Source: Cyanidioschyzon merolae (taxonomy: Eukaryota). Taken from it: a stretch of 64,000 nucleotides of DNA. Of the stretch, positions 3,352 through 33,190 are shown piece by piece; the stretch's first letter is position 1; each line of letters starts with the position of its first letter. The notes under the pieces are model-generated. The model was not told the origin of the DNA. It worked only from the letters and a program-made list of their open reading frames with translations, and searched no databases. The stretch lies in NCBI GenBank assembly GCA_000091205.1, contig AP006496.2, one strand, 5' to 3'. A program made the translations under genes and the position numbers.

Positions 3352-4566
3352 ATGCTTGTAGATCGATACGCGGGTTTGCGTGCCCTACGGCCAATAGGGT
3401 CCGCGTTGCTCCGGCCTGGGCGCGTGCTCCGGTGTCTCACCTCGGGCAACGGTGGCCGCGCAGCTGGTGAAGCAGGGTCAAAGCCGACCTCGGGGCCGAT
3501 CCACCCAGAAGAGGGAGCAGCGGCAGCCTCGGATGGCGCGGCAGAGTCCAAGCGCCCACAGCACTCGCGATGGAGAGCTCTCTTTCGACCTGGACGTCTT
3601 CTCGGCTTCGTTGCGCTTGGCTCAGCCGCGACAGTGCTGACTTTCTGGGTCGTCGACCCCGAGGGAACGGTAGCACGTCTCGAGCGGCTACGGCACGAAT
3701 TGGAGTCGCGCATCCGCTATTACGTCGAGCCTAGTCGAGAAAAGCTCCTACCGGACCCAGTTGCTCCGTTTCCCGGCAGTCTGCCGCCACGAACGTTGGT
3801 CCTGGATCTCGACGAGACCCTTGTGCACTCAGACTGGACGCGATCGACGGGGTGGCGAACCTCAAAAAGGCCGGGCGTAGACGCCTTTCTGGCGTACATG
3901 GCGCAGTTCTACGAGATAGTGGTCTTCACGAGCGCCCTTCCCGGCTATGCGGATCCCATTCTAGACAGGATGGATCCAAACGGGTACATCACGCACCGCC
4001 TGTATAGGCATGAAACCAAATACCGCGACGGCCTGCACATGAAGGACCTTGCCAAGCTCAACCGCGATCTACGACGCACCATCATCATCGATAATGACCC
4101 TCGAGTATTCGCGCTGCAATCCGAGAACGGCATCGAAATCGCCCCGTGGAACGGCACTGACCCCGACGACAAGGAGTTGCTTCGTCTTACTGCATTCCTC
4201 GAATGGGTCGTTCGCAACGATGTCGCTGATGTACGACCGATCATCGCCACCGTTCGGAACTGTGATCGGACGACAAGCCGCAGCTTTGCCGAGCGGTTTG
4301 AGGCCTGTCGCCAGCAGGTCGAGTCCGTCCTTGCGTCACAGAAGCTCGCGGCAGTAGCCGGAGCGGCAACCGCGTCTTCAAGTTCCGCGGACGGTCATCT
4401 ATCGGGCAACGGTGTGCGCGCTCCTGTTCGAGGTCTGGGGATCTTCGCCATTCCACGCCGCGATCCCGCTGAGCAGTCAGCAACTACAACATCCGAGGCA
4501 TCTTCGCCAGCGGCTCCAGCGCAGCCGGTTCCTGATCAGAGTATCTGGACTCGTTTGCGACGATAG
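3352..4566 (+). CDS. mitochondrial import inner membrane translocase subunit TIM50 (FCP1/NIF phosphatase-like domain)
   Basis: Track ORF 3154..4566 begins with a TTG inside the minisatellite. The first ATG is residue 67 (MLVDRYAGLRALRP...), an Arg-rich presequence-like N-terminus followed by the TM segment LLGFVALGSAATVLTFWVV. The FCP1-homology motif LVLDLDETLVHSDW...IIIDNDPRVFALQSENGIEIAPW is typical of TIM50. Confidence 0.85.
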   Translation: MLVDRYAGLRALRPIGSALLRPGRVLRCLTSGNGGRAAGEAGSKPTSGPIHPEEGAAAASDGAAESKRPQHSRWRALFRPGRLLGFVALGSAATVLTFWVVDPEGTVARLERLRHELESRIRYYVEPSREKLLPDPVAPFPGSLPPRTLVLDLDETLVHSDWTRSTGWRTSKRPGVDAFLAYMAQFYEIVVFTSALPGYADPILDRMDPNGYITHRLYRHETKYRDGLHMKDLAKLNRDLRRTIIIDNDPRVFALQSENGIEIAPWNGTDPDDKELLRLTAFLEWVVRNDVADVRPIIATVRNCDRTTSRSFAERFEACRQQVESVLASQKLAAVAGAATASSSSADGHLSGNGVRAPVRGLGIFAIPRRDPAEQSATTTSEASSPAAPAQPVPDQSIWTRLRR

Positions 4567-5940
4567 AGCTTTCACGAACTTTCAGATCGGAAGCGAGTCA
4601 TGCGAAAAGTTTGCGCTTTGCGTCCCCGTATCGAGCTGGTGAGTTCGCTGCGGCACGCGACGCGTCTGTGTTTTTTCTCGGGGGCGCGGGGCAAGCGTCT
4701 AGGATTGTTTACACGAATAAGAGAATCCGTCGTTGTGCGATGGATATCAGCATCAAGGAGAGCAGCAGCGATCATTGCGGAATTCAGACGTCCACGTACC
4801 TCGAATCACCACTAGCCACACTCTTCATCGCGTATAATGGATCGTTCATACGGTCGCCCAGGTGCCGAGTGCGTTCTGTGAGCGTCCAGTGTGACGCCTT
4901 TAGAGCCGGTGCAGACGCCGCACGCAGATAGAGCGGCTTTTGCGTACCACTGAGGGCGTTGGCTCTAGAACTGTCATCTAGTCGAGTGCAGGTACAGCGC
5001 GCTCGTTTCTGCCGCGACGAGCGCGCTCCTTTCGGGAACTCTGTCTGCACGCTTGCAGGTGCTGCCCAGCCTACGGAAGCTAGATATCATGAAGGGACGA
5101 TTTCGCACTTGATCATCACGCTGGTGGATGAGATTTTGCGAGACTTTGCTTTCCAGCGGGCGTCGCTGTGCATCTGGGTCTGGCGCTGCCCCAAGACTTG
5201 ACGAGGCGTCACATATGGCCGTGGTAGCTCGCCGCTGGAGCATCCACGCAATAGGAGTATGCTAGGGAGATGGCGGTAAAGGCACACCTCAGCCCGAGGG
5301 GCATTGTCGAGAGGGCTCGTCCACATCCATGTCAGAGGACGTTCATGTTTGCCATTTCGTGTTTATGCCAGTGGCGGCAGAGATGCATGACTGGGCGAGT
5401 CTCTTCAAACGACAAGGTTCGCGTGGCCTGCCGTGTAACGACAAGCGCCTGATTACACGAGTCACCAGAGGTTCCGCACCTGGCGACTCCCAACACGCAC
5501 GTGCACGAGTGGTACACCCGCATCCTCCGGGCAAACAAAGCGCACAAACGCTCATTGTACCCGGGTGTGCAGGGGCAGCAGCCGCGGTCACACGCACTCG
5601 GTGCAGTGAAACAGCGCAGGTTTCCTGTACCTGAGCGATACACCCAGAGATGGCTCTTATCGTGCGAGACAAATATCTTACGAACTCCATGTGATCAGCA
5701 AAGTACGCAAGGAAACATGGGGCACCTAGGCTCCGGGCGAAGGCCACTCAGCCGCCTCAGCGGGTGTCTTTGCCGGGGCGTCTTCCCTCGACGGAACGCA
5801 GCGTCTATTCGCATTCACCGGCACGACACCCTATTGAAGAGAAGCGCTCGCGTAGGCTCCACGCCGATAACACTCGTGATAATGTCAACGGCTGCGCAGC
5901 TAATAGCCCAGTAATGTGTGCCGCACCTGGCTCCGCTGTG

Positions 5941-6615
5941 CTACCTCTTCACCTCTATCTGCCAGAGGTCGACGTCGATGTCCACGGCACGTTCCCTATG
6001 AAACACGTACGTTGCGGGGAGATCGAAACGCAAGCGAGCGTACACCTGGGCCGTACACCCGAAACGCTCCAGCCTCCTCGATAAGTAACTGCGCGTGCTC
6101 GACTTGTGCAGAGAGTACACAAATCGGCGACTCAAGTGACATGCTACATCGAGGAAGGCGATGTCGGCGGATCGTTGTCGCGTTCCAAAGGGCGGATTAA
6201 GCACAGCGACGTCGAATGACTTTGGTGCCAATGCCAACGAGTTGGGCTGGACGTCCACCGCAGCAAACTCCAAGACTGCTCCGACGGACTGGGGACACAG
6301 TTCCCAGAGCGCTGCCGCATTGGCCCGTGCCAGCTCCAGGGCCTCGCTATCGACGTCCACTCCGAGCACGTGGTTGAGTCCAGCGAGACACAGTGCAAGA
6401 GCGAGTATTCCAGTCCCGGTGCCGAGGTCCACTGCCTGCACTGACCTCCGCTCATCTTCGTCGATGCATAGGGCAACATGGTGGGCGATTCTTGCCGCCA
6501 GATGAACCGGTGTCGTGTACTGCTCCAGGTGCACACGCGGGGACTGGAACTGGCGCCACGGAAGCTGTGAAAGCAGCGTCTCGATCTCACGAACGCTCGG
6601 CACCGAGCCACGCAT
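5941..6615 (-). CDS. METTL5-like N6-adenine (rRNA m6A) methyltransferase, Rossmann fold
   Basis: Residue 1 of the track ORF is GTG; the first ATG is residue 9. The protein aligns end-to-end with METTL5-type proteins: LEQYTTPVHLAARI, the SAM motif VDLGTGTGILALA, the catalytic NPPFG, and YSLHKSSTR...DIDVDLWQIEV. Confidence 0.8.
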   Translation of the reverse strand: MRGSVPSVREIETLLSQLPWRQFQSPRVHLEQYTTPVHLAARIAHHVALCIDEDERRSVQAVDLGTGTGILALALCLAGLNHVLGVDVDSEALELARANAAALWELCPQSVGAVLEFAAVDVQPNSLALAPKSFDVAVLNPPFGTRQRSADIAFLDVACHLSRRFVYSLHKSSTRSYLSRRLERFGCTAQVYARLRFDLPATYVFHRERAVDIDVDLWQIEVKR

Positions 6616-7109
6616 CCCAGTTCGGCAGACTTTCAGCACGCTGCGATGCCGAGTACACGTCGCTCGCAGGGCCTAGCAGGTCCGCTCCTTAAAGCCTACG
6701 CAGCGCACGCTCCAACACGCTGTTCCAGCGGACCTGTGGTTGTAATTCGGGCTTGCGGGGTGTGTCGCCCCGCTGCCGACGGTCGGTCCAGCTGCTTGTA
6801 GCACCCCCGCTACCTCCGTGGAAGCTGTTTTTCCTGCCAGCGGCGGGCGTTTGAATGAATCGTCGATAAAACACTGTCCCAGGCGCGTCGCAGTGCTCCC
6901 CAGCTGACGAGCACCCGAAGCCATTTCTGTTACCCGATGCGTCGCAGCGCTTTCGTATGGACCATCGGCGCGTTTGCTTCTAAGATGAGCATAGAGCGAA
7001 TAGATAGACTCACTCACACGCTTTCCGCAGGACTTATACGAGCGGGTGCCTGCTATGGGCTTTCACTCTCATCTTGTTCACTTCGAGTCTGAGAGGCTGG
7101 CCCGGAAAG

Positions 7110-8340
7110 TTGGCTCAAACCAGCTCCTTGGGTCTTCTACTGAGCACTGTATGTCGTCTAATGTTCATAGCAGCGTTGAAGTCTGGGATCACGAACTGGA
7201 TGCGTTTATTGTCTCTTATTAAACTCACCAATGCAAGGATCCCTCGAAATGCTGCCCTCGGTGCCATTTGGTGCTCCATCACCTCTCCAAGGTTTCCTAT
7301 TCCCAAAGTGCTCCGTTGCCTTCTCTCCATCTCGACGTTATGAAGGATACACCCCAGCACATCCATTAGATTTTTTAAACACATTTCTTTATGCCCCTAG
7401 GTGACGACCTTATAGGAGCGCGTAGGACTTGCGGAAGAAAGACGTCATGTGTCTCTGTGTACCACCGTGTTCTGAACGCTTCAGTGATTCGCCTAGTGGC
7501 GCGATCTTTACTTTTCACAATAGGAAACACTTCTTCAATGTGGTTGAACCGGAAGCGTACTGACGAATGAAATGCAGCCCTACTCCGGTAGAATTGGGCA
7601 AGGCTTCAATGCGAGGGGAATGGTGAAATTCCAAAAAGTCGAACAGAAGAACACAGCCAGACGTCAGGGAATCGTCTTCAAAGATTCTACGATGTGAAAA
7701 CTGTTGTATGAGCGTTCTCTGGAGTCGAAACTGAGGCCGCAAAAGAAATCCACTGCAGCTGGAGTAGAGAAATTCTTATGTATTTTCGATATCGATTGTA
7801 TATCCAACGGGCGCCCCTCATCGCGAATACTCATATCCACTGTGACGGTTCTGTGTGGAGCAAATCTCGTGGAATGAAAAAAACAACGTTCTTGTGGCTC
7901 ATAGCCGGCGCGATGTTTCAGGGACTGTGTTCTAGTCGCCATTTCGTTCGGACATGGCTGTGAACGATCTAGGACATTTTATGTGACTGTATGCCACTGG
8001 TTTCAGGACCATACGAAAAAGCTGTAGACAAAAACAGTCACCGGTGATGGCTGCTATCGTCGCTTTTTGTTCCCGCAAAGTCGGCAACGGGTCGTGTTCT
8101 ATCACTGACCTCATGCACGCGTCGAGAATATCCGTTTCTTTTCGCGGAGTTCATCTAATTCTTTCTCTAGTGTTCCTCGACCGTTTGAGTGTTGTTCCAT
8201 GACTGACATCAAGAATCAATACAGATCTCCTTCAAATATCCAGTATATAATATATCCTACATGAAATTCGACTTCGATATATACAGTATATTACAACGTG
8301 ATTCCCATCTCTTGCTATACATCGCAGATCGTGTCGAGTA
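7110..8340 (-). mobile_element. decayed, frameshifted copy of a transposon family carrying a Fanzor/TnpB-like gene (relic copy 1)
   Basis: Minus-strand fragment VIPDFNAAMNIRRHTVLSRRPKELV (7115..7384) matches the RuvC-III region [21 protein letters not shown] of the intact gene at 23223..24395. Upstream (7470-7560, minus strand) the fragment FRFNHIEEVFPIVKSKDRATRRITEAF resembles the Tc1/mariner C-terminal motif DLNPIENVWSILK. About 70% nucleotide identity to 31870..33190 in the same order and orientation. Confidence 0.65.
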
Positions 8341-13911: not shown

Positions 13912-15438
13912 GACAACTGGGGCTCGCGACCCAGCGATTCACCTCACAGAGGCATCGACGATACAATCCCGCCGGCGTTCAGCGACCTCTCCTCAACAGT
14001 CATTTGCACTCGGACTCTCAATTTCTCACTCCGATCCATGATAAAAAAGTCCCGCGTGGGGTCCGGTTAACCTGCGAGAACTGCCCCTCTTTTCGAATTC
14101 TACCACATGGTGCTTCCACCAGCGGTTTACACGCCGCCGCAGCAGCAGCAGCAGACAGCGCCTTGCACTAGAGCTTCTTCGGCATCGCTCGAAAATCGAC
14201 TGCCGCGTTCGCGACGCTTGCTGCGGTGTGTGCTCAAGCTTGTAGATGGCGCCGCACGGCCCAGATGAGCCAGTAGTCGTCAAGAGCGAAATGCGATGCC
14301 TTTTTCAGTGCTTGGGGGACATACGTGTGGCACGATAATGGCTCCCGACGCTCTGCCGTGTTCGAGTCGCGTATGCAAACAGATCTTCGCCCCGTCTGCT
14401 GCCGGCAAAATTGTTATTCGTTCCCGCAGTGCCTCCAACTGCTCCCAGTGCAAGTCTTTTCGACTCGTGTACAGTGCTTGGGAACGCAGGCCCTGTGCTC
14501 GTCCCAAGAGCCGTTCGGATACGCTAGCAAATCATCTGCGACTGCTTGGGATACTACGTGGGGAAGTATCGTTCTGGTTTTTTCATTCGTACCCAGAGAG
14601 CGTTTTCGCAGGGTCGCTTGTGATCTAAACCGCTCGTGGATGATGTTGGGCGCAGGTTCGCACGCCAGCGCACTGTGTGTGTGTATGTGAAGATTGAGTC
14701 ATAGTCGTCAGAGCGCCCAGCGGAGCGCGTGCTTTCGGTGAAACAGATCGCTTCAAGAATTGGACGCCGTCTCGAGGCCTGCCTGGTGCCTGCTCCACGT
14801 CATCCGAAAGAAACCTTCACATACGTGTTCAGCTCGAATGCTGTATTCGTAGCGTCCTCCTTATCCAATGTCATAATTAGGCCGAAAGACTGATACGTCC
14901 GCCATCAAGTTCTGTTGCCCAGCAAAAGACGTTCCAGGTGGCAGAGCAGAATCGCTTGAGCAGAGCTTTATCGGCTCCAGTCACTGCACGCTGCAAACAG
15001 TATCGATTACGAAGTAGATACACTAAGTAAAATCGAATAATGGAACACCTGTATCGTCTACAAGTTGCCTAGGAAGACCGATTCCGGTGTATCTATACGG
15101 CGCTCCAGCATCACTGGATTGCTTAACCGCACTACACCAGTGCCTTGCTTCATGCTTGGATCCAAACGTTCCCTCCTGGCCGCTGTTTCTTCATCGCATG
15201 GCTTCCGATTTTCAGCACAATGCCCGCAATGACTACGACACGACTTTTTCGATACTTCGCTTAACACAGAGTCTTGGGCGCTGCAGAAGCACGAGACATA
15301 TTCCGGATGTTGGTCGAGGCGTTGAACTCCCGGTGGAGAAAGTGCTTTTGCCCATGACTGCTGGGAAATGCGCACCGCAGTAAACCTGTCACCATAGACT
15401 ACCTTGCCAGCTGACGTGCGGTCAGCTTCACGTCCACC

Positions 15439-16347
15439 ATGTCGTACATTCGGACCTGTTCCTCTCTGTTTCTCAAGCTGCATCATCGTGCACCTCAGCT
15501 CGTGGTGCTTTCATGTCGTCCTGAACTTGTCCAAAGGAATCCTGCACAATCGGCTCCTGCATTCGTTTTACGCTCCGAGCGAAGGAGCATGAGTCCAGCC
15601 TTTGTGTTGAACAGCACGTTCAGCGTCATAGGCCATTACCAAACGACACGACGTATCGGTTATTTCCTTTTTCAACACAGTGAGCAAATTGGTGAATGCA
15701 CGCATCTTGCGAACGTGCAACCCGAAGCGCTGACGACACCAGTACGGTATCATGAACTCCTGCTAAATCTCATTCTCATATGCAATTTTGACGCTCGCAT
15801 ACTCCCTGAATCAAGTGATGAAAGTACGCCCTCTGCACGATACGGCGCCCAGAGCGTCGGCACAGGTCCGGACGGCATTCCTCAATCTGTTGGAATGTCC
15901 CGCGGCGTCTATGATGCCCAGCTGCAGATGATACTGAACGCTGGAAACCATGAGCAGCTTCCTGTGATATCCGTTCGGATCTTTGGATCCTTCATTATGG
16001 TTTGGAGGTACGTCGACGCTCATGATATTGCTGGACCTTGGATGCACGCCCACCACGAAGAGTTTCTTATCACCTACCGTGAACAGTTGGATACGACTCG
16101 CATTGTTCGACTCATGATTCGGTTTCCGATGAATTCGATGGAGATTAAGCCTTCGTTGGTCTGCAACGTTACTGTATGCTTCGTTCCGTTTTCGCCCGGT
16201 CTAGGAGAAATCTTGAGCGAGCTCTACCAATACATTTCGCGGACTCGTTTGAACTCTTCACATTTGCTTCCGGGTGTCCGCCCTAACCCGCTGAGGAGGC
16301 CACACAACATTGTAGACACTCATCTATGGCGATGTAATGAGCATTAA
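15439..16347 (+). CDS. hypothetical protein, no recognisable domain
   Basis: A 302-aa ATG-initiated ORF lying between recognised genes. It has no motif I can name and only moderate codon bias, so it may instead be a decayed element. Confidence 0.25.
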   Translation: MSYIRTCSSLFLKLHHRAPQLVVLSCRPELVQRNPAQSAPAFVLRSERRSMSPAFVLNSTFSVIGHYQTTRRIGYFLFQHSEQIGECTHLANVQPEALTTPVRYHELLLNLILICNFDARILPESSDESTPSARYGAQSVGTGPDGIPQSVGMSRGVYDAQLQMILNAGNHEQLPVISVRIFGSFIMVWRYVDAHDIAGPWMHAHHEEFLITYREQLDTTRIVRLMIRFPMNSMEIKPSLVCNVTVCFVPFSPGLGEILSELYQYISRTRLNSSHLLPGVRPNPLRRPHNIVDTHLWRCNEH

Positions 16348-19300
16348 TGTCACACATGGAAACCACATCCAAAATAAACACCAGAGGAGACGAGGACTCT
16401 CGAATTCGGGAAGGGAGTCGACCGCGCTCTGGATGGCTCTGCTCAGGAACACGTAGTGCTTCAAGATGGAATGTAGGTAGGTAGATATCACGTCTCAATT
16501 ATACATCGGATACGACGTCCGCTGGTCCGAGGCAGAGAGCAACACGATGAGCTTGGACAGCATGAAGCGTCTCTTGCTCTCGTTAACGCATCTCTTTGAA
16601 CTTCGCGACAAACTCCATCTCGTCCGTAGCCAGCAAGCCACTTGCCTACGTCCGCACCCGAAGAATCCCTTCATGTAATCCTCACTGTTCTGAGCCTCAA
16701 TAGTGACGCTATAATGACCACAGCGTGCGCTTCATGAAGCCCCGGTCATTGGCTTGAACATGGTTTTGCTTGTTGAGGTTGTTTTGAAACTTTCTGGCAA
16801 CTGCGGCGTACATGTTCCGATGGATGATGTGTAACGGCGAGGCGTCGGGGTAGTTTTGGAAGCGTGTGTACAAATCTCTAATCCTATGAACAAGCCGAAT
16901 GGCATCTTCTATCCGAAGCATCCGTTGCTGCAAGGAGGTTTGACAGAAGATTTCCTGAGGAATGCGGACAACTGGCAGCCCAGCGTCCGCAGCGCCCCTG
17001 AGCAGTTGCTTGGCGAGGTGTGTCAAGGAGAGGTAAGCATGGCGAGCTTCCGCCGAGGTGGAAGCTGCGCGAACCTCAACGGCCAGCTGCCTCATCCTTT
17101 TTGGAAGACTCACCAGCTTGATACGTTTTCTGTGGAAAGCCTCGACAACGAGTGCAGACTGATCTATCCGCTACCACAATTTTTTCTTCTTGTCCCTCCT
17201 CGCCCACTTTTCGGAAGGATCCTTCCCCTCTTCGTCTAGTGGTTTCCTCTCCCTCTCCACAAAGCGGTGTTGGTACCGATGCGGTCGATATACTTCATAT
17301 CTGTTTTTTCTCTGGGCTGAAACAGTCTCGGCGATAGATGGCAATGAAGCTCATCTATTCTGCGTGAGTGTCGATTTCTCCTGAAGCACCTCTTTGCCAC
17401 CGTATCTGCGGGCAGCGCGCTCGCGGTGCGGGGCACGCTTTCCCCTCCCTGATGCGCTCGAGCGGAGGAGCAAACCATCAGCTCAGAGCTGGTTACCATA
17501 GAAAAACACTCGTCCGAGAACGGTCGAGCGAACGACTTCTCGACTGATCTGTGAGCATGAAAGCGGAGTCTGCCGACAGAAAATTTACCTTCAACTGTTG
17601 TGGACCGAGGAGTTCAGGCTAGCACGAAGAACAGCTCACTACCTATTGCTGCAGCATACACCCAGACCGCCTTGGATCTCTACAAAGCGACGTTGTCTAA
17701 GTGCATAACAAAAGAATACGGGATGATGAAAGCACGTGGCGTGCTCCAGCGAACGATGAGATGTAGAAAGCCCGTCTCTTTGGGGATACTAAATTGAACA
17801 CACATCTGAGTCGCCGCTGGGGCTGATCTTGTCGACATTTGCGCTAGAATCTTCTGTAAGAGTAGCTTTGGCCCCATCTTCGCGTACCCGTATGCAAAGG
17901 TGTACCATTTCATCCGAGTGAAGTCGCATTGAGTGAGACGAGCTCCCTTGCTTCCAGTACAGAGTGTTCGATTTCCAGCACGAAATGGAGAGTATACTGC
18001 ACAACAAGCTATCCTCTCTCAGAGACGCACGTTTCTCTGTTGTTTATCTACCCTTCGTCACCTTTCGCATCTAAGGTCCCAAAAATTCACATCCCGTAGC
18101 TTCTCTGGAAGCTTTTCTGAGAGAAATACGCAGTGGAACAGACTGACGAAGAGATTAACCTGTCCATAGAGTTTGTTACGTTCTGTTCTAGGCACACGAC
18201 GTATAATGCTTGTTCTCCGAGAAGGATGGTTCATCCACCTGCTGCCCTGTGAGTGACCGACGTGCTCCATTAAGGCCGCCTTTCGTAAGCTCTCCGTGAG
18301 CATAAAGAGTCTTTTCGCGACTTTTGTCCGATCTACATGATACATTCCTTGTATTGGATAAGTGCAAGAAAAACAAACAAAATCGGAAAGGGCGTGCTGT
18401 TACAGGTACGCCAGAATTTACTGCCAAAGTGCACATGCTGTTTCAGTTCGTTTTCGCCCCGGCGCGCGAGCATATCGATCTTGCAACTGTCCAACGATGT
18501 AGATGCACTCATTTTCGACGCGAAGTGCAAAGAAAATGCGTACTGTTCGGAACAAGCCAACCTACAGTGAACGTAAAGCCAACGAGGGAGCCGCTCTGAA
18601 TCACATCGTGCAGCCTCGGCGTGAAAGAAACGAGAGGGGCGACGTCCCGATTCCGTATCTTGTGCATACGATCGAACTACTCCGACGCGTGGTATACGGC
18701 TCTTCATGCTCTGTCAGTGGCCTTCGTGCAGGAGAACGAACAATCTTGAAAGAGATTAGATCGAAGTATTCTCCGGAATAGGCCCTAAACAAATCGGTAC
18801 GCAGTCTATCCGCAGCATCTATCGAGCAACGTGTGCTGTACCTGATCATCCTCTGGTGCGGCTTGTGCTGGAGATGCGCAGCACTCTCGCGGCGTCCGCC
18901 ATAAAGTTCTGCTTTGAGCGCTTCTAGATATATCCTCGACAATGGAGCACCATGCCCACCGCGCGAGTCTCAATGGCACGTGAATGCCTCTCAGCCGTAC
19001 TGAATGTCCACTGCTGCCTACCACACAAATCCACTAACCAACTTGCGAGCTAAGGCCATAGGTGAAGGCCCGCGCTTCACTGGCATGTAATGCCGTGCCG
19101 AGGCAATCATCAAAAGGGGCGCCACTCGCGCGTTCTGCCCCGCTTCAGTGCGCTCCACCGCGCCGAAAAGCAACTCAGCGAGTACACGGTCAACCGATTG
19201 CGGAGATCTCTTCGTCGGCACAAGCCAGTGCTCGTGAGGCGGAGTCTCAATTTTAGGGCCCCATTTGGGCCCATAAAACGGCGAACTCTAGATATTGGAA

Positions 19301-21148: not shown

Positions 21149-22678
21149 CATTTTGCAAGCTCGTGCCGCTTTGGCACTAGAGGTACTGCACTACGCAGCA
21201 AGACGCTCGGGGACACTTCCTGCGGTTCGCAGCCTCAGAGCTGTGTACCGCGCATACTGCACTCAATGGAGTTGTTAGCGGGGGCGACTAACGCTCCAGA
21301 GGTTGCTTTCGTTGCTACGGTCTAGGCTTGCTGAAACTGACCAGACTCGCTCGGGTGCGCGAACGTTACCAGCGGTCAGTTTAGAAACAGTCGTTTCGCT
21401 GCGGACGCTTGGACCTTCCGCCAGCCACGGTACTGTGAAATGCCCACGGCATAGAGGCTTGTTCGACCCAGTGAACAACCGGGAGCCAAGCTATCTTAGG
21501 CACCTGCTTCAATGTTGTTGCGTAGAGCCTGACTCCTCCGGTTGTGCGAGAGCAGCCAATAACTAGTGGAGGGAGCAGCTCTGCTCTCCAGATGCGTCTG
21601 CGTTCCAGTGGCCCAAAACTTTTCTTTCCATTGGGGCATGGTTTTCAATCGATCCAGCGGCATGTGTCCGTATAGCGCCGCGTCTACCGATACTACTTGC
21701 TCCGAGGTTGGATGCGACGCCACCACGGTGACCGCACTGGAACAGAGCAGCCCCGCCGTGCCATTGCGGGTGTCGGGCCGAAGCTCTTAAACCAAATGCC
21801 CTCGGGCAGAATCCGCAGGGCCCCTGGATCTGCAAGAATGCTGAAGGGAAACGCACTCGCGAGGCCGCTTCGACGGCAGCGCGGCAAGCGACTCGGACAT
21901 GACGTCGAGTGGCCAGCCTTCAGTGACGCGCCCTGTCCGTGGCTGGGTATCCAACGCGGCAGCGCCAACCCTGCAAACCCCGGACAGCGCTCGGGTAGCA
22001 CACGCGTCACTGTGATTCTACGTATGTATCCAAATGCGCTCGGGGTTGCCAAAACCCGCAATATCCATCCGCGCTCGGTAACACGGCTGCATCGAAACGC
22101 GCGCGTTGCCTAGTCCTGAATCTTTGAAACACCTGAACCTCGTCGCGGGCTGAGAGCTAATGAAAGCGCCGCGCAACGCCTAGGAACTTGTTCCCCATTC
22201 TGACTTTCGGTATTTAGTGTGTGCTGCTCCACCCCGGGGCCGCTGTACACAACCATCCTTTCTGTCCAGCCGAAGACGCATTGCCTTCGATGTGATCGCA
22301 ATAAAGCACTGGAATACAAAGGGAAAGCAGCAGCAGCAGCAGATGATGGTGACCGTGTTCAACGTCTAACAAAGTTTCCTCATGCCTTTACTGGAGCTTT
22401 CACTGCACACGGCGAGGGATATGTGGGCGCCCCGTCAGCGTGCCCGTCTGGCTCAGCTACTAGCCCTCGCACGGGACGCATGATACCGTTGGAGTTTAGA
22501 TCGACGCTACACCATTGCAATGCAGCAACAGCCGCTGTCTATTACACTGAAATTTACCTGGTCTCAAAACCGTATCCCACTTTCCGCACGATGGACATAT
22601 ACTACAAGCGCGTTTCTGGTAGCCGTATATTTGACAAGGGTGCTTTCCTGGCACGAAAAAAAGTAATGAACAGAGTTC

Positions 22679-23167
22679 TCAAGCTGTGCAGTTCGTTGAA
22701 CTGCCAGAGCCCGACGGATCCTCGCGCAGATGACCAACTACTTCGTATTTTTGGAGAAACTTCTCAAACCACTGGTACAGCGTCTCTTTTTCGTGCTCCG
22801 TCAAATCATCAATAGCGCCACAGACTTCGCCAGGTTCCGTGCTCATCTTTGCGAGTCCTCTGCTCGCGTTCTTCCCAGCAAAGACAAAGTACGGCCCACC
22901 GGGCCCATAAAAAGACCTCGCATCGGAGACGTCGAAAACTTCAGCCCGCGCCCCAGGCCGTGGCTGTACGGCCACGTAGATCGGCTGCCCTTTTGTTCCG
23001 TTGTACTGAGCAAGCTCTTCGCCAGTGAACGCCCTCGGTGCCGGCCGTTCATGGTGCCGTGGCGGCGGCTGCACTGCAGGGTTCTCAACGTGGTTACCCA
23101 TCAAGCGAAGCGCACCCAGCACGAATACACCGCCACCCAAAAGTAACCAGAGTCCAACTGCATCCAT
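22679..23167 (-). CDS. membrane-associated progesterone receptor component (PGRMC/Dap1)-like cytochrome b5 heme/steroid-binding domain protein
   Basis: The first ATG is residue 47 of track ORF 22679..23305 (MDAVGLWLLLGGGVFVLGALRL = N-terminal TM). The MAPR domain reads FTGEELAQYNGTKGQPIYVAV...VFDVS...FYGPGGPYFVFAGKNASRGLA. The 46 codons upstream of the ATG are translation of the transposon 3' flank. Confidence 0.8.
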   Translation of the reverse strand: MDAVGLWLLLGGGVFVLGALRLMGNHVENPAVQPPPRHHERPAPRAFTGEELAQYNGTKGQPIYVAVQPRPGARAEVFDVSDARSFYGPGGPYFVFAGKNASRGLAKMSTEPGEVCGAIDDLTEHEKETLYQWFEKFLQKYEVVGHLREDPSGSGSSTNCTA

Positions 23168-23222
23168 GATAGCGTCGAAGCGTTCACCAAACGCCGTTCT
23201 AAAGTAGAACGACGCCGACCGT

Positions 23223-24395
23223 TTACAGTAGAGGAGAGAAACCCGCCCTAGACAAGAAGTCTCCAACTGATGTGCAGACGCCTCCCGTCTTTTTCGACGG
23301 GTCACCCACTACTGCTTCCAACTTCTTCTCATATAGGTCGACTTTGAGAGGTTGTCCAATAAAGTTCATTGTTGTTGACTCTGGAGGTCTCTTCTCCAGC
23401 ACCGCACATCTCCTTACATTGATGGCGGCGTTTAAGTCCCGGTTCACGAATTCCATACGTTTCGTCCCGTTGATTGTACTTACTAATGGAAGGAGTCCAC
23501 GAACTTTCGCCCTCCTTTCCATTTGCTCCTCTGCCAGCTGTCCGTACTTTGCTATTTCCTCGGGGCTCCGTTGGCACTTTTCCATCGCCACTCTCTGAAG
23601 TGTGCAACCCAGCTCGTGGTGTGTGTACGATGTTCGAAACTCATCTATAGGTATCGTGACGAAACGCCTTGCGCACTCCTTGTACGCTCTCGTCGTTGGA
23701 GCTGGTGTACACCCTTTTTGGGTCTTCCATCGCCTTGCTCCGTACGCTACTACGAGCCCTTGACGGTCGTCCTCCTTCAAGGCGCTCAACTGGTTGAAAG
23801 AATTCGCGAACGCCCGCCGCTTACCACAATACAAATTCATTCGCAAACGAGCCCACCGGGACTTGGTATACTCATCCCACAGTGCATCCCAATGAGCAAC
23901 GCGAAATTCTATGAACTCCCGAAGAGCTTTAAAGTCCGCTCCGCGGCTCGTCACCTCGCTCAAAGTTTCCAGGCGATCCTTCATTCCTGCATTCCATGTC
24001 TCGATTTTCTTCCTTGCATTCACTATATCGGATTCTCGATAGTATATTGCTCTCGAGAATCTCAACAGATGCACGTCTTTCTGACGTAAGTTGCCGTCAG
24101 TACCATCTTCCTCACGCTTCGGTGCTACGATGGTTATGATATTGGTATTCCCAGGGTCCGCGCCAACGACAAAGTCGCTATCCCGCACTTTCTGCGTCGC
24201 AGGTTCCGCCTCCTTCTTCTCTTCATGCTTCGCCGCGTAAACGATAACGTGGTTATCCTGCACTTTCTGCGTCGCAGGATCCGCCGTCTTCTTATCTTCA
24301 TCCTTCCTCACGGACGAAGCCGAAGGCGGGACTGAACGATCTGCCTTCAACCGTCGATAGTGTACACACATGGCTACTCCATCGGGTTCGATCAT
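23223..24395 (-). CDS. TnpB/Fanzor-like RuvC-fold (OMEGA-type) nuclease, intact 390-aa copy
   Basis: Track ORF 23223..24422 starts at GTG; the first ATG is residue 10 (24393-24395). Motifs (track numbering): [16 protein letters not shown] at 84-99 is RuvC-I-like GxDxGxx[23 protein letters not shown] at 245-266 matches the TnpB bridge L.YKAE..G..V..V.P.YTSQ preceding the zinc finger. The finger itself is degenerate (HH...C...C instead of CxxC...CxxC). [16 protein letters not shown] at 326-341 is the RuvC-III hallmark D.NAA.NI. A candidate RuvC-II acidic cluster is LKEDD (215-219). Confidence 0.7.
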
Positions 24396-24477
24396 CCCAG
24401 TGAAAAACTTTTGCTTGATCACTTTGAGAGGTTTGAAATCGAATATATTCTTCCAGTACGTCTTCCGGTTCTTACCG

Positions 24478-25326
24478 GTTAACTTGCGTCAGAAAGACGT
24501 GCATCTGTTGAGATTCTCGAGAGCGATATACTATCGAGAATCCGATATAGTGAATGCAAGGAAGAAAATCGAGACATGGAATGCAGGAATGAAGGATCGC
24601 CTGGAAACTTTGAGCGAGGTGACGAGCCGCGGAGCGGACTTTAAAGCTCTTCGGGAGTTCATAGAATTTCGCGTTGCTCATTGGGATGCACTGTGGGATG
24701 AGTATACCAAGTCCCGGTGGGCTCGTTTGCGAATGAATTTGTATTGTGGTAAGCGGCGGGCGTTCGCGAATTCTTTCAACCAGTTGAGCGCCTTGAAGGA
24801 GGACGACCGTCAAGGGCTCGTAGTAGCGTACGGAGCAGGGCACTGGAAGACCCAAAAAGGGTGTACACCAGCTCCAACGACGAGAGCGTACAAGGAGTGC
24901 GCAAGGCGTTTCGTCACGATACCTATAGATGAGTTTCGAACATCGTACACACACCACGAGCTGGGTTGCACACTTCAGAGAGTGGCGATGGAAAAGTGCC
25001 AACGGAGCCCCGAGGAAATAGCAAAGTACGGACAGCTGGCAGAGGAGCAAATGGAAAGGAGGGCGAAAGTTCGTGGACTCCTTCCATTAGTAAGTACAAT
25101 CAACGGGACGAAACGTATGGAATTCGTGAACCGGGACTTAAACGCCGCCATCAATGTAAGGAGATGTGCGGTGCTGGAGAAGAGACCTCCAGAGTCAACA
25201 ACAATGAACTTTATTGGACAACCTCTCAAAGTCGACCTATATGAGAAGAAGTTGGAAGCAGTAGTGGGTGGCCGGTCCAAAAAGACGGGGAGGCGTCTGC
25301 ACGTCAGTTGGAGACTTTTTGTCTAG
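24478..25326 (+). pseudogene. 5'-truncated inverted copy of the Fanzor/TnpB-like gene
   Basis: It starts at the codon matching residue 111 ([10 protein letters not shown]) of the intact copy and lacks the RuvC-I region. There are point differences (GARRW vs GAGHW) and an indel altering the C-terminal 20 residues. The apparent N-terminus MATPSGS... (24370-24477) is antisense of the intact copy's 5' end. Confidence 0.75.
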
Positions 25327-25634
25327 GGCGGGTTTCTCGCCACTACTGTAAACGGTCGGCGTCGTCCGACTTTAGAACGGCGTTCGGTGTCGGTGGCCCT
25401 TTTACGAGGTTTCTTCCGACGCAACCTCCAGCTTTTGAACAGTTGACCGCGAACCGACACCCGCATCCGTTTTTTTACACAACACAACCTGAGCAAAAAG
25501 TTTGCAGAGAGTCTTACACGTTACGAAAGCGAAATATGTTGGTCCGAGCTACTTGTGCCCTGAAATCCTCGGATAATAAGCAAATACACCACGCATGGAA
25601 AAGTTGAATCTGCGTCTATTCGAACGCACTTTGG

Positions 25635-31649: not shown

Positions 31650-33190
31650 CCTAAGCGGACTTGAGCGGCAGCGCCTCGCTTCTATGCAGGGCTTGTAGCA
31701 GGCAAAACGCGCCAATACTTATTTTGTAAAACGAAAAATGCTTCGTGGACATGCAGGATAAACTAATACCGATGCGCAGACGCCTAAGAGCGTTTTTGGA
31801 CCAGTCGCCTGCTATCGGCTTCAGTTTCTCCTTGCACACTTCGAGCATCAGAGCCTGCCTCACAAAGTTGTATCGAGTCGGCTCCTGTGGTTTCATCTTC
31901 AGCACCGCACATCTTCTCTTATTGATGGCGGCGAAGTATCAGTTTGCGATCTCTTTGCATTCATTGACGCTGCTTGAGCTCACCGATGGAGGGATTCCAA
32001 GAACACTTGCCGTCTTTGCCACTGTACTCTCGTCATCGTCCTGTTGGGCAAACACTGTTCCTGACCCATTTCCCCTCCTCTGCTTCTTTATTTGATCTTC
32101 TCCGTTCGGCTTTAGTCGACAAGAGGATTTTTTCGTTCTTTTCCGGCAGTCGGCGATGTCGGGCCTCGAAAATCCTCGGCGTCCATGTCCATACCTTCTC
32201 CTTCGGTTTCTTATTTCTTCAAATCAACGCACTTGCTTATGCCCTTAGATGAAGACATTCCCTGCGGGAGAAGGGCTTGCGGACGGCAGACATGGTATGC
32301 CCCACTGTGTCGCCGTGTGCTGAACGCTTCAGCGATTCGCCCAGTGCAGCGATTATTGCGTTTCACGATAGAAAACACTCCTTCGATGGCATTGAAGCAC
32401 GTAGAGCACCGAGGAAGGAAAAGCAGCTCTATCCCTATAGAACCGGCAAAATCCCGAACGCAAGGGGAATGGTGAAATGTCACCTGACTTCAGGGAGAAG
32501 CCTTCAGTGATTTGGCAAAGCGAGTGTGATTGTGTGAGCCTTCTCTACGAGAAAGACTGCGGCCGCCAAAAGAATCCGCTGCATCTAGAATCGATGATGA
32601 TTTCCGAGTTATCTTCGAGTTCGATCGGATATTCAACGGGCTCGCTGCTCCTGGACTATCCGAGCACGCTCCGACCGTATCATCCAAAGGAAGTCGCATC
32701 GATTGAAGAAACAAACCGACGTCTCTCTGCTGCATATCGATACTACCTATCCAGGCACGTTGTTGTAGTTACGATTTCGGTGGAAGATGGCCGTGCGTGG
32801 AACTGGACCCCATTTTTGCGACTGTATCCCAGTATTTTTAGGACAACAGGAACAAGCTATCGAGAAACAGAGACGCCCATGGTGGCTACTTTAGTCGCTT
32901 TCGCTTTCAGTAAAGTCATCGACGAGTCATTTTCTACCATTGGCGGCAAGCACGCAATAAGAATACCCGTTTTTGGCGCGGAGCGCATATGCTTCTTTCT
33001 TTCCGTGTTCCTATATCATCTCTGTATTGTTGCATGACTGATCTGAAGGAGAAAAGTAGTCCTCCTTGAGCTGTTCAGTGCAGAATATATCCTACATGCA
33101 ATTCGTCTAGGATATATACAGTACATTCCAGCATGATTTCGATCCCATCCTATACATCGCAGCTGGGTTGGAGCGTAAATGAGTTGAGAC
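31650..33190 (-). mobile_element. decayed copy 2 of the Fanzor-carrying transposon family
   Basis: Minus-strand fragments YFAAINKRRCAVLKMKPQEPTRYNFVRQALMLEVCKEKLKPIAGDWSKN match [48 protein letters not shown] of the intact gene. ELLFLPRCSTCFNAIEGVFSIVKR (32211..32483, minus strand) resembles Tc1/mariner LPPYSPDLNPIENVWSILKR. The copy is colinear with 7110..8340. Confidence 0.65.

Follow-up and report, generated by a model that had tools for sequence, protein, structure and literature searches.

Between two host genes of Cyanidioschyzon merolae, two nearly identical stretches of Fanzor-like sequence face each other in opposite orientation. What these sequences are, whether either still works, and how they came to lie head to head are the questions that this locus raises. 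The locus was analyzed within a window of 64,000 nucleotides, by which we mean the whole stretch of DNA considered here, and this window comes from C. merolae 10D, with six window proteins matching 10D proteins BAM81290-81305 exactly.

A palindrome in the MAPR-MSH5 interval

A repeat search and blastn (E = 0) recovered inverted arms at 23185-24092 (minus strand) and 24481-25389 (plus strand), which align over 909 nt (98.24% identity; 15 mismatches, 1 gap) around a spacer of 388 nt (24093-24480, minus strand). The first-pass annotation had described near-identical inverted arms at 23175-24092 and 24478-25395 with a spacer of 385 nt, and two Fanzor-type gene copies arranged head to head. The alignment agrees on both counts and places the boundaries within 3-10 nt of those positions. 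The whole palindrome is ~2.2 kb long and fills the intergenic region between a MAPR/cytochrome-b5-like host gene (BAM81291, 22679..23167, minus strand), which has its ATG 17 nt outside the left arm, and the host gene MSH5 (BAM81292, 25635..28343, minus strand), which ends in a stop codon 245 nt outside the right arm. In one distant relative with conserved synteny, the MSH5-MAPR spacer contained no Fanzor sequence.

The left arm carries RuvC-II, RuvC-III, the ORF tail, and the 3' untranslated end of a first element copy, copy A. The right arm is copy B: it holds 909 nt from the 3' end of the same element and corresponds to positions 5089-5997 of the full-length family copy L002. The spacer is the part of copy A that is absent from copy B, and it encodes the last WED-like strands, two copies of a 25-aa acidic/lysine repeat, and the RuvC-I strand VVGADPGN, for which it is the sole site, as had been claimed for the GADPG strand. 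At the DNA level, the 25-aa repeat is a tandem duplication of 75 nt (24158..24306, minus strand, 84% identical) just upstream of RuvC-I, and its copy number differs between relatives. Family-homologous sequence extends through the spacer up to the junction at ~24478. The palindrome ACCGGT (24474..24479) is found at this inner breakpoint of copy A, in a position where family copies have the 12-nt palindrome TTCACCGGTGAA.

Inverted duplications are a known class of artefact, and arms of 909 nt exceed the length of Sanger or Illumina reads, which would allow the palindrome to be read as a collapsed second full copy or as a fold-back chimeric clone or read. However, the reference is a finished 10D chromosome, and the truncated junction 24480|24481 was recovered in the independent related-strain assemblies L001, L092, and L093, as was the arm-to-spacer junction 24092|24093 in L001, L097, and L101. 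Both junctions, together with strain-specific substitutions, are present in 4-5 independent metagenome contigs from different samples, and the 16 inter-arm differences include arm-specific alleles that are stable across strains. Since both junctions are found in independent assemblies, a chimeric read is excluded, as is assembly collapse, a concern already attached to the original claim, and we consider an artefact extremely improbable. When 83 family loci were searched for the same palindrome, the inverted pairs that turned up were no more than 71-85% identical, which shows that the architecture is not family-wide.

A Fanzor1 element of the CMe-1A type

A profile of 40 diverse relatives matches the Fanzor1 of Parasitella (9cf0, E = 1.6e-21) as well as those of Spizellomyces (8gkh, 1.2e-9) and Guillardia (9cer, 2.9e-5), and the D, E, and D columns of the RuvC site are invariant across these 40 sequences. 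Only this broad profile succeeded; a narrow family profile found no match in the PDB. Pfam scans of the window ORFs and six close relatives returned no family, the sole precomputed domain match was to DUF8286, and a weak Cas12f1-like_TNB match was seen in 5/40 relatives. An AlphaFold model of the full-length relative P0017 (pLDDT 82) has Fanzor structures as all seven of its best PDB matches (E = 5e-12, TM up to 0.61), followed by weak matches to TnpB and Cas12. An earlier structure prediction from a 7-sequence alignment was uninformative (pLDDT 37). By homology, the coding sequence is identified as that of a Fanzor1, and the P0017 model supports the Fanzor fold for this full-length relative. 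A C4 zinc finger between RuvC-II and RuvC-III is absent: this interval holds only C273, C283, and HH268-269, and CxxC pairs are missing from it in the family consensus too.

CMe-1A has been described from C. merolae as a family of ~150 copies with ~80% identity to the consensus, ~3 kb in length and lacking TIRs (Bao & Jurka 2013, PMC3627910), with a single Fanzor1 ORF, no transposase, and variable 5' modules (PMC3627910). The copies of the family found here are 78-86% identical to the arm, with a core of 2.6 kb and 5' ends that vary by subfamily, and its 83 loci contain no TIR-like inverted repeats apart from separate inverted copies. Judged by the published description, the locus fits CMe-1A in host, length, ~80% inter-copy identity, lack of TIRs, and possession of one ORF. 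Relics of 70% identity had also been reported elsewhere in the window, a figure that does not hold up: the other Fanzor-like fragments, at 15267-17227, 7091-7438, and 31864-31938, reach only 30-50% protein identity.

Truncation and decay of the two copies

Copy A (23185..24478, minus strand) is 5'-truncated and consists of 1294 nt from the 3' end of a CMe-1A-type Fanzor1 element. In blastn, L002 4704-5997 aligns to window 24478-23190 at 83%, and since the core element occupies L002 3395-5998 (~2.6 kb), ~1.3 kb of the core is missing from copy A. Its ORF of 399 codons (23223..24422, minus strand) starts with GTG, has its first ATG at codon 10, and begins at P0017 residue ~230; at least 229 N-terminal residues are missing from copy A, and full-length relatives are 600-740 aa long. 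Fanzor homology is in frame only as far as the arm junction at ~24478. This ORF has the RuvC triad as D89 (GADPG), E261 (IDEFRTS), and D329 (NRDLNAA) and lacks the WED/REC lobes; its C-terminal tail is frameshifted by a 1-nt deletion, whereas copy B retains this tail in its consensus form GGRSKKTGRRLHVSWRL. Between strains, dN/dS of the ORF is 0.5-3.7, about 1, with no sign of purifying selection. The left gene had been called intact, which these defects contradict. The 5' truncation and RuvC-I loss claimed for the right copy, on the other hand, are borne out: the ORF of copy B (318 codons, 24370..25326, plus strand) has antisense spacer as its first 37 codons and Fanzor homology from 24481, and it lacks RuvC-I and hence the first D of the triad.

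A block specific to the left arm (23232..23302, minus strand) departs from the right arm at 8 positions, one of them a 1-nt deletion. Relative to 65 family copies, at least 5 of the 8 changes are derived, and the block is located 65-135 nt upstream of the MAPR ATG.

Could copy A nevertheless be a live, compact nuclease gene of Fanzor/TnpB size, with a guide RNA encoded at its 3' end? Its D-E-D triad is present, its 399 aa match bacterial TnpB in size, the reading frame stays open in all strains, and the 3' 220 nt are conserved in the family. However, only 88 residues precede RuvC-I, as opposed to ~320-370 in full-length relatives and solved Fanzor1, so the RNA- and DNA-binding lobes are missing. 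The ORF also lacks an ATG at its start and has a frameshifted tail in 10D, left-arm mutations fall at the conserved 3' positions 23235 and 23232, and dN/dS of ~1 or higher is not that of a gene under constraint. An exact-protein look-up of the 399-aa ORF returned no record, and copy A is unannotated in 10D, where the flanking genes carry consecutive accessions. We regard a live gene as highly improbable. The evolution of the copies between strains is pseudogene-like, and judged from their reading frames both are dead, 5'-truncated copies, neither of which would be able to make a working RNA-guided nuclease.

The 3' terminus of the element

The conserved family terminus ...CGTCGTTCGACTTTCGAACGGCGTT(N)GGTG marks the end of each arm. 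A terminal hairpin is found in the left arm at 23192..23214 (minus strand, CGTCGTTC / GAACGGCG), where it is weakened by a G-to-T change at 23206, and in the right arm at 25360..25382 (plus strand, CGTCGTCC-GACTTTA-GAACGGCG). Between subfamilies, one compensatory G-C to U-A change in this hairpin was noticed by eye. G/T-rich sequence follows the terminus in many family copies. The 3' 220 nt of the element have 83% column identity within the family. In a hand-drawn 5-helix structure of the 3' end, 85.8% of cells pair, with covariation no better than in shuffles, and RNAalifold on the 3' end gave little structure and no significant covariation.

Gene conversion between the arms

The 16 differences between the arms are clustered, with 11 in the outer 118 nt versus 5 in the inner 790 nt (Fisher p = 3e-7). 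For strains other than 10D, the comparison uses short-read metagenome contigs, which never hold both arms fully assembled on one contig and whose inner arm parts may be consensus or chimeric; read with this in mind, the inner 693 nt differ at 3 sites between the left and right arms of 10D, at 18 between the 10D left arm and the orthologous left arm L085 (Fisher p = 0.001), and at 10 between the 10D right arm and the L092 right arm, a non-significant result (Fisher p = 0.09). Sites 23371, 23464, 23539, 24023, and 24070 have one base in both 10D arms and another in both arms of other strains. In clade B2, 5 left-arm sites lying within 71 nt of sequence show the haplotype of the right arm (p = 7e-5), and the flank of this clade differs from that of clade B1 at only 5/1285 sites. 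At the tips, the haplotypes TT and CG are each present in both arms. The conversion signal covers the inner 790 nt and the terminal 25 nt, and block 23232-23302 escapes it in clade A.

These patterns show that the arms undergo concerted evolution, apparently by arm-to-arm gene conversion, which would be intrachromosomal and proceed in both directions with short tracts. Arm-to-arm conversion also homogenizes Y-chromosome palindromes and plastid inverted repeats. Repeated conversion of this kind would explain why the arms are ~99% identical when ordinary family copies are 78-86% identical. Conversion alone is insufficient to explain why inner-arm divergence between near-identical strains exceeds flank divergence.

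Two further features of the strain contigs were considered and rejected. Contigs L092, L100, and L102 visibly switch to other paralogues at their ends, and their divergent ends were not accepted as ancestral states because they resemble chimeric joins to paralogues. The flipped spacer of L001 was not accepted as proof of flip-flop inversion, since the two arms share an identical stretch of 427 nt, and a de Bruijn walk through it yields the same contig.

The palindrome is common to strain clades whose flanks diverge by 0.5-2.5%, in keeping with the earlier statement that the duplication is not brand new, and every strain contig that extends to the locus has kept it. The configuration had been called fragile or recombinogenic; the arms do exchange sequence by gene conversion, but a structure kept in all of these contigs does not appear fragile.

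It had also been suggested that the palindrome is a source of siRNA, that is, a functional hairpin RNA silencing the CMe-1A family. Read-through transcription would yield a double-stranded stem of ~0.9 kb, and the fact that strains conserve the structure might suggest that it is being maintained. However, C. merolae is reported to be without Argonaute and Dicer, and RNAi is reported not to work there (PMC11376382), so the siRNA idea is unsupported. An Rfam search of the region gave no match, and gene conversion accounts for the arm identity without selection. A silencing function at this locus thus seems most improbable.

Origin of the palindrome

The locus is very probably a head-to-head pair of dead, 5'-truncated CMe-1A Fanzor1 copies in the MAPR-MSH5 interval, homogenized by conversion. 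Both copies keep their 3' terminus, pointing outward, and their broken 5' ends abut, such that the homology common to both copies forms arms of 909 nt and the 388 nt present in the longer copy alone form the spacer. The most likely origin is a single local event, in which a 3' fragment of a resident copy would have been re-inserted or duplicated in inverted orientation at that copy's own broken 5' side, with the loss of the 5' half included in the same event. The arms would therefore have been identical from the start. A search of the junctions for a target-site duplication or clear microhomology found only weak 3-4-nt matches.

The palindrome might instead have arisen from two independent 5'-truncated insertions, back to back in opposite orientation and later homogenized by conversion over the stretch they have in common. 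Under this scenario, the arm boundaries would fall automatically at the breakpoint of the shorter copy and at the element terminus. Conversion is demonstrably active, 5'-truncated copies with intact 3' ends occur elsewhere (L053, L044, and L061), and the window holds several other Fanzor relics, which suggests that insertions cluster. However, copies that are 78-86% identical would be a poor substrate for conversion unless both had inserted in the youth of the family, only 0-2 nt separate the two copies, and the sequence beyond copy B does not contain the 5' half that copy A lacks. The left-arm block also consists mostly of derived, unique changes rather than the alleles of another subfamily, and in that block the clade B2 left arm is identical to the right-arm type. 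We therefore regard two independent insertions as unlikely.

Two other readings, which are compatible, appear quite unlikely when taken jointly. The first is that the palindrome is the footprint of a one-ended, 3'-primed insertion on both sides of one chromosomal break: both ends of the break would have been extended, with the element copied inward from its hairpin-bearing 3' terminus and the incomplete copies joined at the short palindrome. Such a two-sided insertion would explain the two exact 3' ends facing outward, the two 5' truncations, and the direct junction, and if true, the palindrome would be a trace of how transposase-less Fanzor1 elements such as CMe-1A move. The second is that MAPR may have recruited the 3' end of the left arm as its promoter or 5'UTR, in which case selection on MAPR function would shield the arm-specific 71-nt block from conversion. 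With the MAPR start 17 nt from the transposon end, promoter replacement is open to testing here.

Significance

The locus is a tidy, ordinary instance of transposon decay, not a working gene or a silencing device. It contains no intact compact Fanzor gene and no siRNA trigger and is therefore not a candidate editor or silencing locus. Its value is as a small, well-bounded natural case of inverted repeats evolving in concert within a tiny genome, for which hot-spring metagenomes offer a ready-made strain series. C. merolae is reported to be genetically tractable and has efficient targeted homologous recombination, so the length and direction of conversion tracts should be experimentally measurable. 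For the copying of CMe-1A-type Fanzor1 elements, the locus supplies a few constraints in its exact 3' ends, its 5' truncations, and its terminal hairpin.

Comparison with known systems

The closest known system is CMe-1A itself (PMC3627910), which has the same host organism, a single Fanzor1 ORF, no transposase, a length of ~2.6-3.2 kb, no TIRs, and copies at ~80% identity. The locus differs in being two 5'-truncated fragments head to head rather than a complete element, and the CMe-1A paper makes no mention of such a palindrome or of concerted evolution (PMC3627910). At the family level, the fold and the RuvC D-E-D site resemble those of the solved Fanzor1 proteins (SpuFz 8gkh/9cey, PpFz 9cf0, and GtFz 9cer), and the conserved 3' region of the element is positioned where Fanzor omega-RNA scaffolds are encoded. 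Unlike these proteins, the window copies lack the N-terminal WED/REC half and the classic C4 zinc finger.

The Chlamydomonas families CRe-1/2/3 are Fanzor1 families described as non-autonomous Helitron2 with "one-ended transposition" (PMC3627910). They resemble the present element in their Fanzor1 cargo, in frequent 5' truncation with intact 3' ends, and in a 3'-terminal hairpin. In contrast, no Helitron termini (5'-TC / CTRR-3'), ATIRs, or TSDs were found at the locus; the element does have a hairpin, but its termini, which read ...GGCGTT(N)GGTG, are not those of Helitron or Helitron2. Fold-back priming, template switching, and L1 twin priming likewise produce an inverted copy joined at a truncated internal point, here with a breakpoint at ACCGGT. 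Fold-back copying, however, would be expected to continue past the element end into MAPR, whereas both arms stop at the element terminus, and L1-type twin priming acts on another, 5' segment, which it inverts instead of making a second copy of the 3' end, and its hallmarks, poly(A) and TSDs, are both absent here.

Compared with primate Y palindromes, the locus is ~1000-fold smaller, is made of transposon pseudogenes with no functional genes, and has an outer block that escaped conversion in one clade. What it shares with these palindromes and with plastid inverted repeats is the arrangement of inverted arms around a unique spacer, arms that are closer to each other within a genome than positional orthologues are between genomes, and derived alleles that move from arm to arm.

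Anatomy and genomic setting of the palindrome

A repeat search resolved the inverted arms as 23284-24092/24481-25289 (809 nt, 99% identical) plus 23185-23286/25288-25389 (102 nt, 93%), while blastn returned a single 909-nt arm alignment at 98.24% identity (15 mismatches, one gap); between the arms lies a spacer of 388 nt (24093-24480). The inverted repeat is real and chance is far exceeded. The inverted copies proposed in the first-pass annotation are thus borne out by both searches, and its coordinates for the palindrome were right to within a few bases. The 16 differences between the arms are unevenly distributed, with 11 in the outer 118 nt versus 5 in the inner 790 nt (Fisher p = 3e-7). 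Metagenome contigs, which are independent assemblies 98.5-99.7% identical to the window, contain the same junctions together with substitutions of their own. The truncated junction (24480|24481) is found in L001, L092, and L093, and the arm-to-spacer junction (24092|24093) in L001, L097, and L101. Because both junctions occur in independent contigs, and because the alleles specific to each arm are stable from strain to strain, an assembly artifact is ruled out.

Six ORFs in the window match C. merolae 10D proteins exactly (range BAM81290-BAM81305). The palindrome is intergenic, with MAPR, a cytochrome-b5-like gene (BAM81291; 22679-23167, minus strand; Pfam Cyt-b5), on one side and MSH5 (BAM81292; 25635-28343, minus strand; MutS III/IV/V) on the other, and the left arm ends 17 nt from the MAPR ATG. 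Since these accessions are consecutive, no gene is annotated between them. In a distant relative whose MSH5 is 53% identical, the pepsin-MSH5-MAPR-primase synteny is kept, and the 1281-nt MSH5-MAPR spacer contains no Fanzor sequence or inverted repeat, so the element was inserted within the C. merolae lineage. The locus shows no target-site duplication. A 198-codon ORF antisense to MAPR (22219-22815, plus strand), a gene call in several metagenome annotations, has no family match and is probably spurious.

Two truncated copies of a Fanzor1 element

The left copy (copy A, 23185-24478, minus strand) contains a 399-codon ORF with 261 close relatives, about 70% identical and all unnamed or DUF8286; neither Pfam nor a narrow profile linked it to known families. 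An exhaustive profile search recovered 1347 relatives, mostly 600-740 aa, and when 40 of them were aligned, D, E, and D were invariant at GxDPG, DEFRT, and NRDxNAA. Among solved Fanzor1 proteins, the profile built from this alignment matched those of Parasitella (E = 1.6e-21), Spizellomyces (1.2e-9), and Guillardia (2.9e-5). An AlphaFold model of a 586-aa relative, P0017 (pLDDT 82), had Fanzor structures as its best seven matches in the PDB (E down to 5e-12, TM 0.61), followed by weak matches to TnpB and Cas12. C. merolae has a published element, CMe-1A, with approximately 150 copies at about 80% identity to consensus, a length of about 3 kb, no TIRs, and class unknown (PMC3627910). Compared by description, the family of the window element fits CMe-1A. 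Its copies share a core of about 2.6 kb (3395-5998 in the full-length copy L002), with 5' modules that differ by subfamily.

Neither copy in the palindrome is intact. Copy A corresponds to L002 4704-5997 and the right copy (copy B, 24481-25389, plus strand) to L002 5089-5997. The first-pass annotation had described the left gene as intact, but on the N-terminal side P0017 extends at least 229 residues beyond the window ORF, which has 88 residues before RuvC-I versus about 320-370 in full-length relatives, and in-frame homology upstream of the GTG "start" reaches the junction and no farther. A 1-nt deletion in copy A replaces the consensus tail GGRSKKTGRRLHVSWRL, retained in copy B, with unrelated residues. 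Between strains, dN/dS is 0.5-3.7, consistent with the expectation for pseudogenes. The first-pass reading that the sole RuvC-I strand lies within the spacer, and that copy B lacks it, was correct. Immediately ahead of RuvC-I, a 75-nt tandem duplication (24158-24306) codes for a 25-aa acidic/lysine-rich repeat. Family members in the narrow alignment (A1) have between 1 and at least 6 copies of this repeat, and the AlphaFold model assigns the region low confidence, with pLDDT below 50, as would fit a disordered linker.

At least 5 Fanzor1-derived pieces are present in the window. A diverged relic of a different subfamily (15267-17227, minus strand) retains a near-full protein in three fragments, covering residues 27-194, 416-612, and 618-666 of a relative's protein, P0124, at 31-44% amino acid identity. 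Short C-terminal fragments occur at 7091-7438 (minus strand, 45% amino acid identity to P0017) and 31864-31938 (minus strand, 64%). None of these is at the 70% identity previously attributed to relics elsewhere in the window.

Some family members have other features. A reverse-transcriptase repeat (Pfam RVT_1; L002 814-2710, minus strand) adjoins several CMe-1A copies and is also found in L073, L074, L081, L049, L011, and L012; in L011 and L012 the 5' end of the Fanzor element directly borders a 400-nt fragment of this repeat. Short variants (L071 2093-3081, L068 2094-3082, L023 291-1258) share a different 5' module (...CCATGGGATATATAATCCCCACGAGG), attached immediately upstream of RuvC-I, which would fit amplification of a deletion derivative better than random truncation.

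Element ends and origin of the palindrome

Alignment of 62 family 3' ends defined a conserved terminus, ...ACTGTACAC..GG-CGTCGTTC-GACTTTC-GAACGGCG-TT(N)GGTG, beyond which flanks diverge. The arm ends at 23185 and 25389 coincide with this apparent 3' terminus. A tandem TCGGTG-TCGGTG (25384-25395) closes the right arm, and the CGGTGTCGG that follows this arm recurs in one other family copy (the secondary copy in L066), which likewise continues ...GCGTT-CGGTGTCGG. In many family copies, G/T-rich sequence (GGTG, GATGGTG) follows the 3' end. An 8-bp terminal hairpin differs in a second subfamily by a G-C to U-A change that is compensatory, as judged by eye. Covariation at the 3' end was not significant in the alignment tested; a putative omega-RNA scaffold there would be plausible. 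The palindrome region matches no Rfam family.

On its inner side, copy A breaks off at ACCGGT, within a 12-nt palindrome of family copies (TTCACCGGTGAA), and microhomology at the junction is weak. We favor a single local event, in which a 3' fragment of the resident copy would have been placed, inverted, at its broken 5' side, because the arms are 98-99% identical to each other versus 78-86% between the arm and family copies at 80 related loci, because they abut directly, and because copy A's missing 5' half is not found in the vicinity. A less likely history is that of two truncated insertions, early and independent, which were homogenized later; it would explain the arm boundaries automatically, and truncated copies with intact 3' ends do exist elsewhere. 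Simple fold-back replication fails to account for the second arm stopping at the element terminus.

Gene conversion between the arms

Trees on 1285 nt of MAPR flank placed 10D, L001, and L085-88 in clade A (0-10 differences), L096/97/101 in clade B1, and L098-100/102 in clade B2, with B1 and B2 20-32 differences from clade A. Within 10D, the arms differ from each other at 3 sites of the inner 693 nt, versus 18 between the left arms of 10D and a clade-A strain (Fisher p = 0.001) and 10 between the right arms of 10D and another strain (Fisher p = 0.09), although inner arm sequence may be mixed in short-read contigs. Three contigs have ends that switch to paralogues, and between strains the inner arms diverge more than the flanks do (p = 2e-4). 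At 23371, 23464, 23539, 24023, and 24070, one base is common to both 10D arms and another to both arms elsewhere. Left arms in the outer block (23232-23302) read ACG-ACTT in clade A, ACGGGTTT in B1, and GGCGGTGA in B2, the last being the right-arm type of every strain. Since B1 and B2 flanks differ at 5/1285 sites (p = 7e-5), one conversion from the right arm accounts for B2 better than five mutations. At the tip (23189-23208), haplotypes TT and CG each occur in left and right arms. Together, the likeness of the 10D arms, the shared bases, the B2 outer block, and the tip haplotypes indicate that gene conversion has been recurrent, short-tract, and bidirectional.

In L001 the spacer is flipped relative to the MAPR flank (L001 1-503 versus window 23978-24480), while its orientation is mutually consistent in the finished 10D sequence, L092, L093, L097, and L101. 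The arms share an identical 427-nt stretch, and a graph walk through it would yield L001. L001 is therefore either a real inversion isomer or such a walk, and flip-flop inversion is possible.

Functional implications

The palindrome had been proposed as an siRNA source, which is unsupported: according to a published report (PMC11376382), C. merolae has neither Argonaute nor Dicer, and RNAi is non-functional in it. It had also been called fragile or recombinogenic; arm conversion agrees with the latter, but the structure is present in all strains that reach it and shows no visible fragility.

Eight left-arm-specific changes, including the frameshifting 1-nt deletion, fall within 71 nt (23232-23302), and this block sits 65-135 nt before the MAPR ATG. 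In comparison with 65 family copies, at least 5 of the changes are derived, two being unique, and the block is fixed in clade A, partial in B1, and absent in B2. The insertion displaced the sequence upstream of MAPR, so the promoter or 5'UTR of this gene would now lie in or beyond the left arm. Selection on this region could explain both why the changes cluster and why, in clade A, they resist conversion, and the transposon end may have been co-opted as the MAPR promoter or 5'UTR.

The palindrome at this locus is real and stable; it consists of two pseudogene fragments from a known Fanzor1 family, homogenized by gene conversion, and as such it is a new instance of kinds of things already known.
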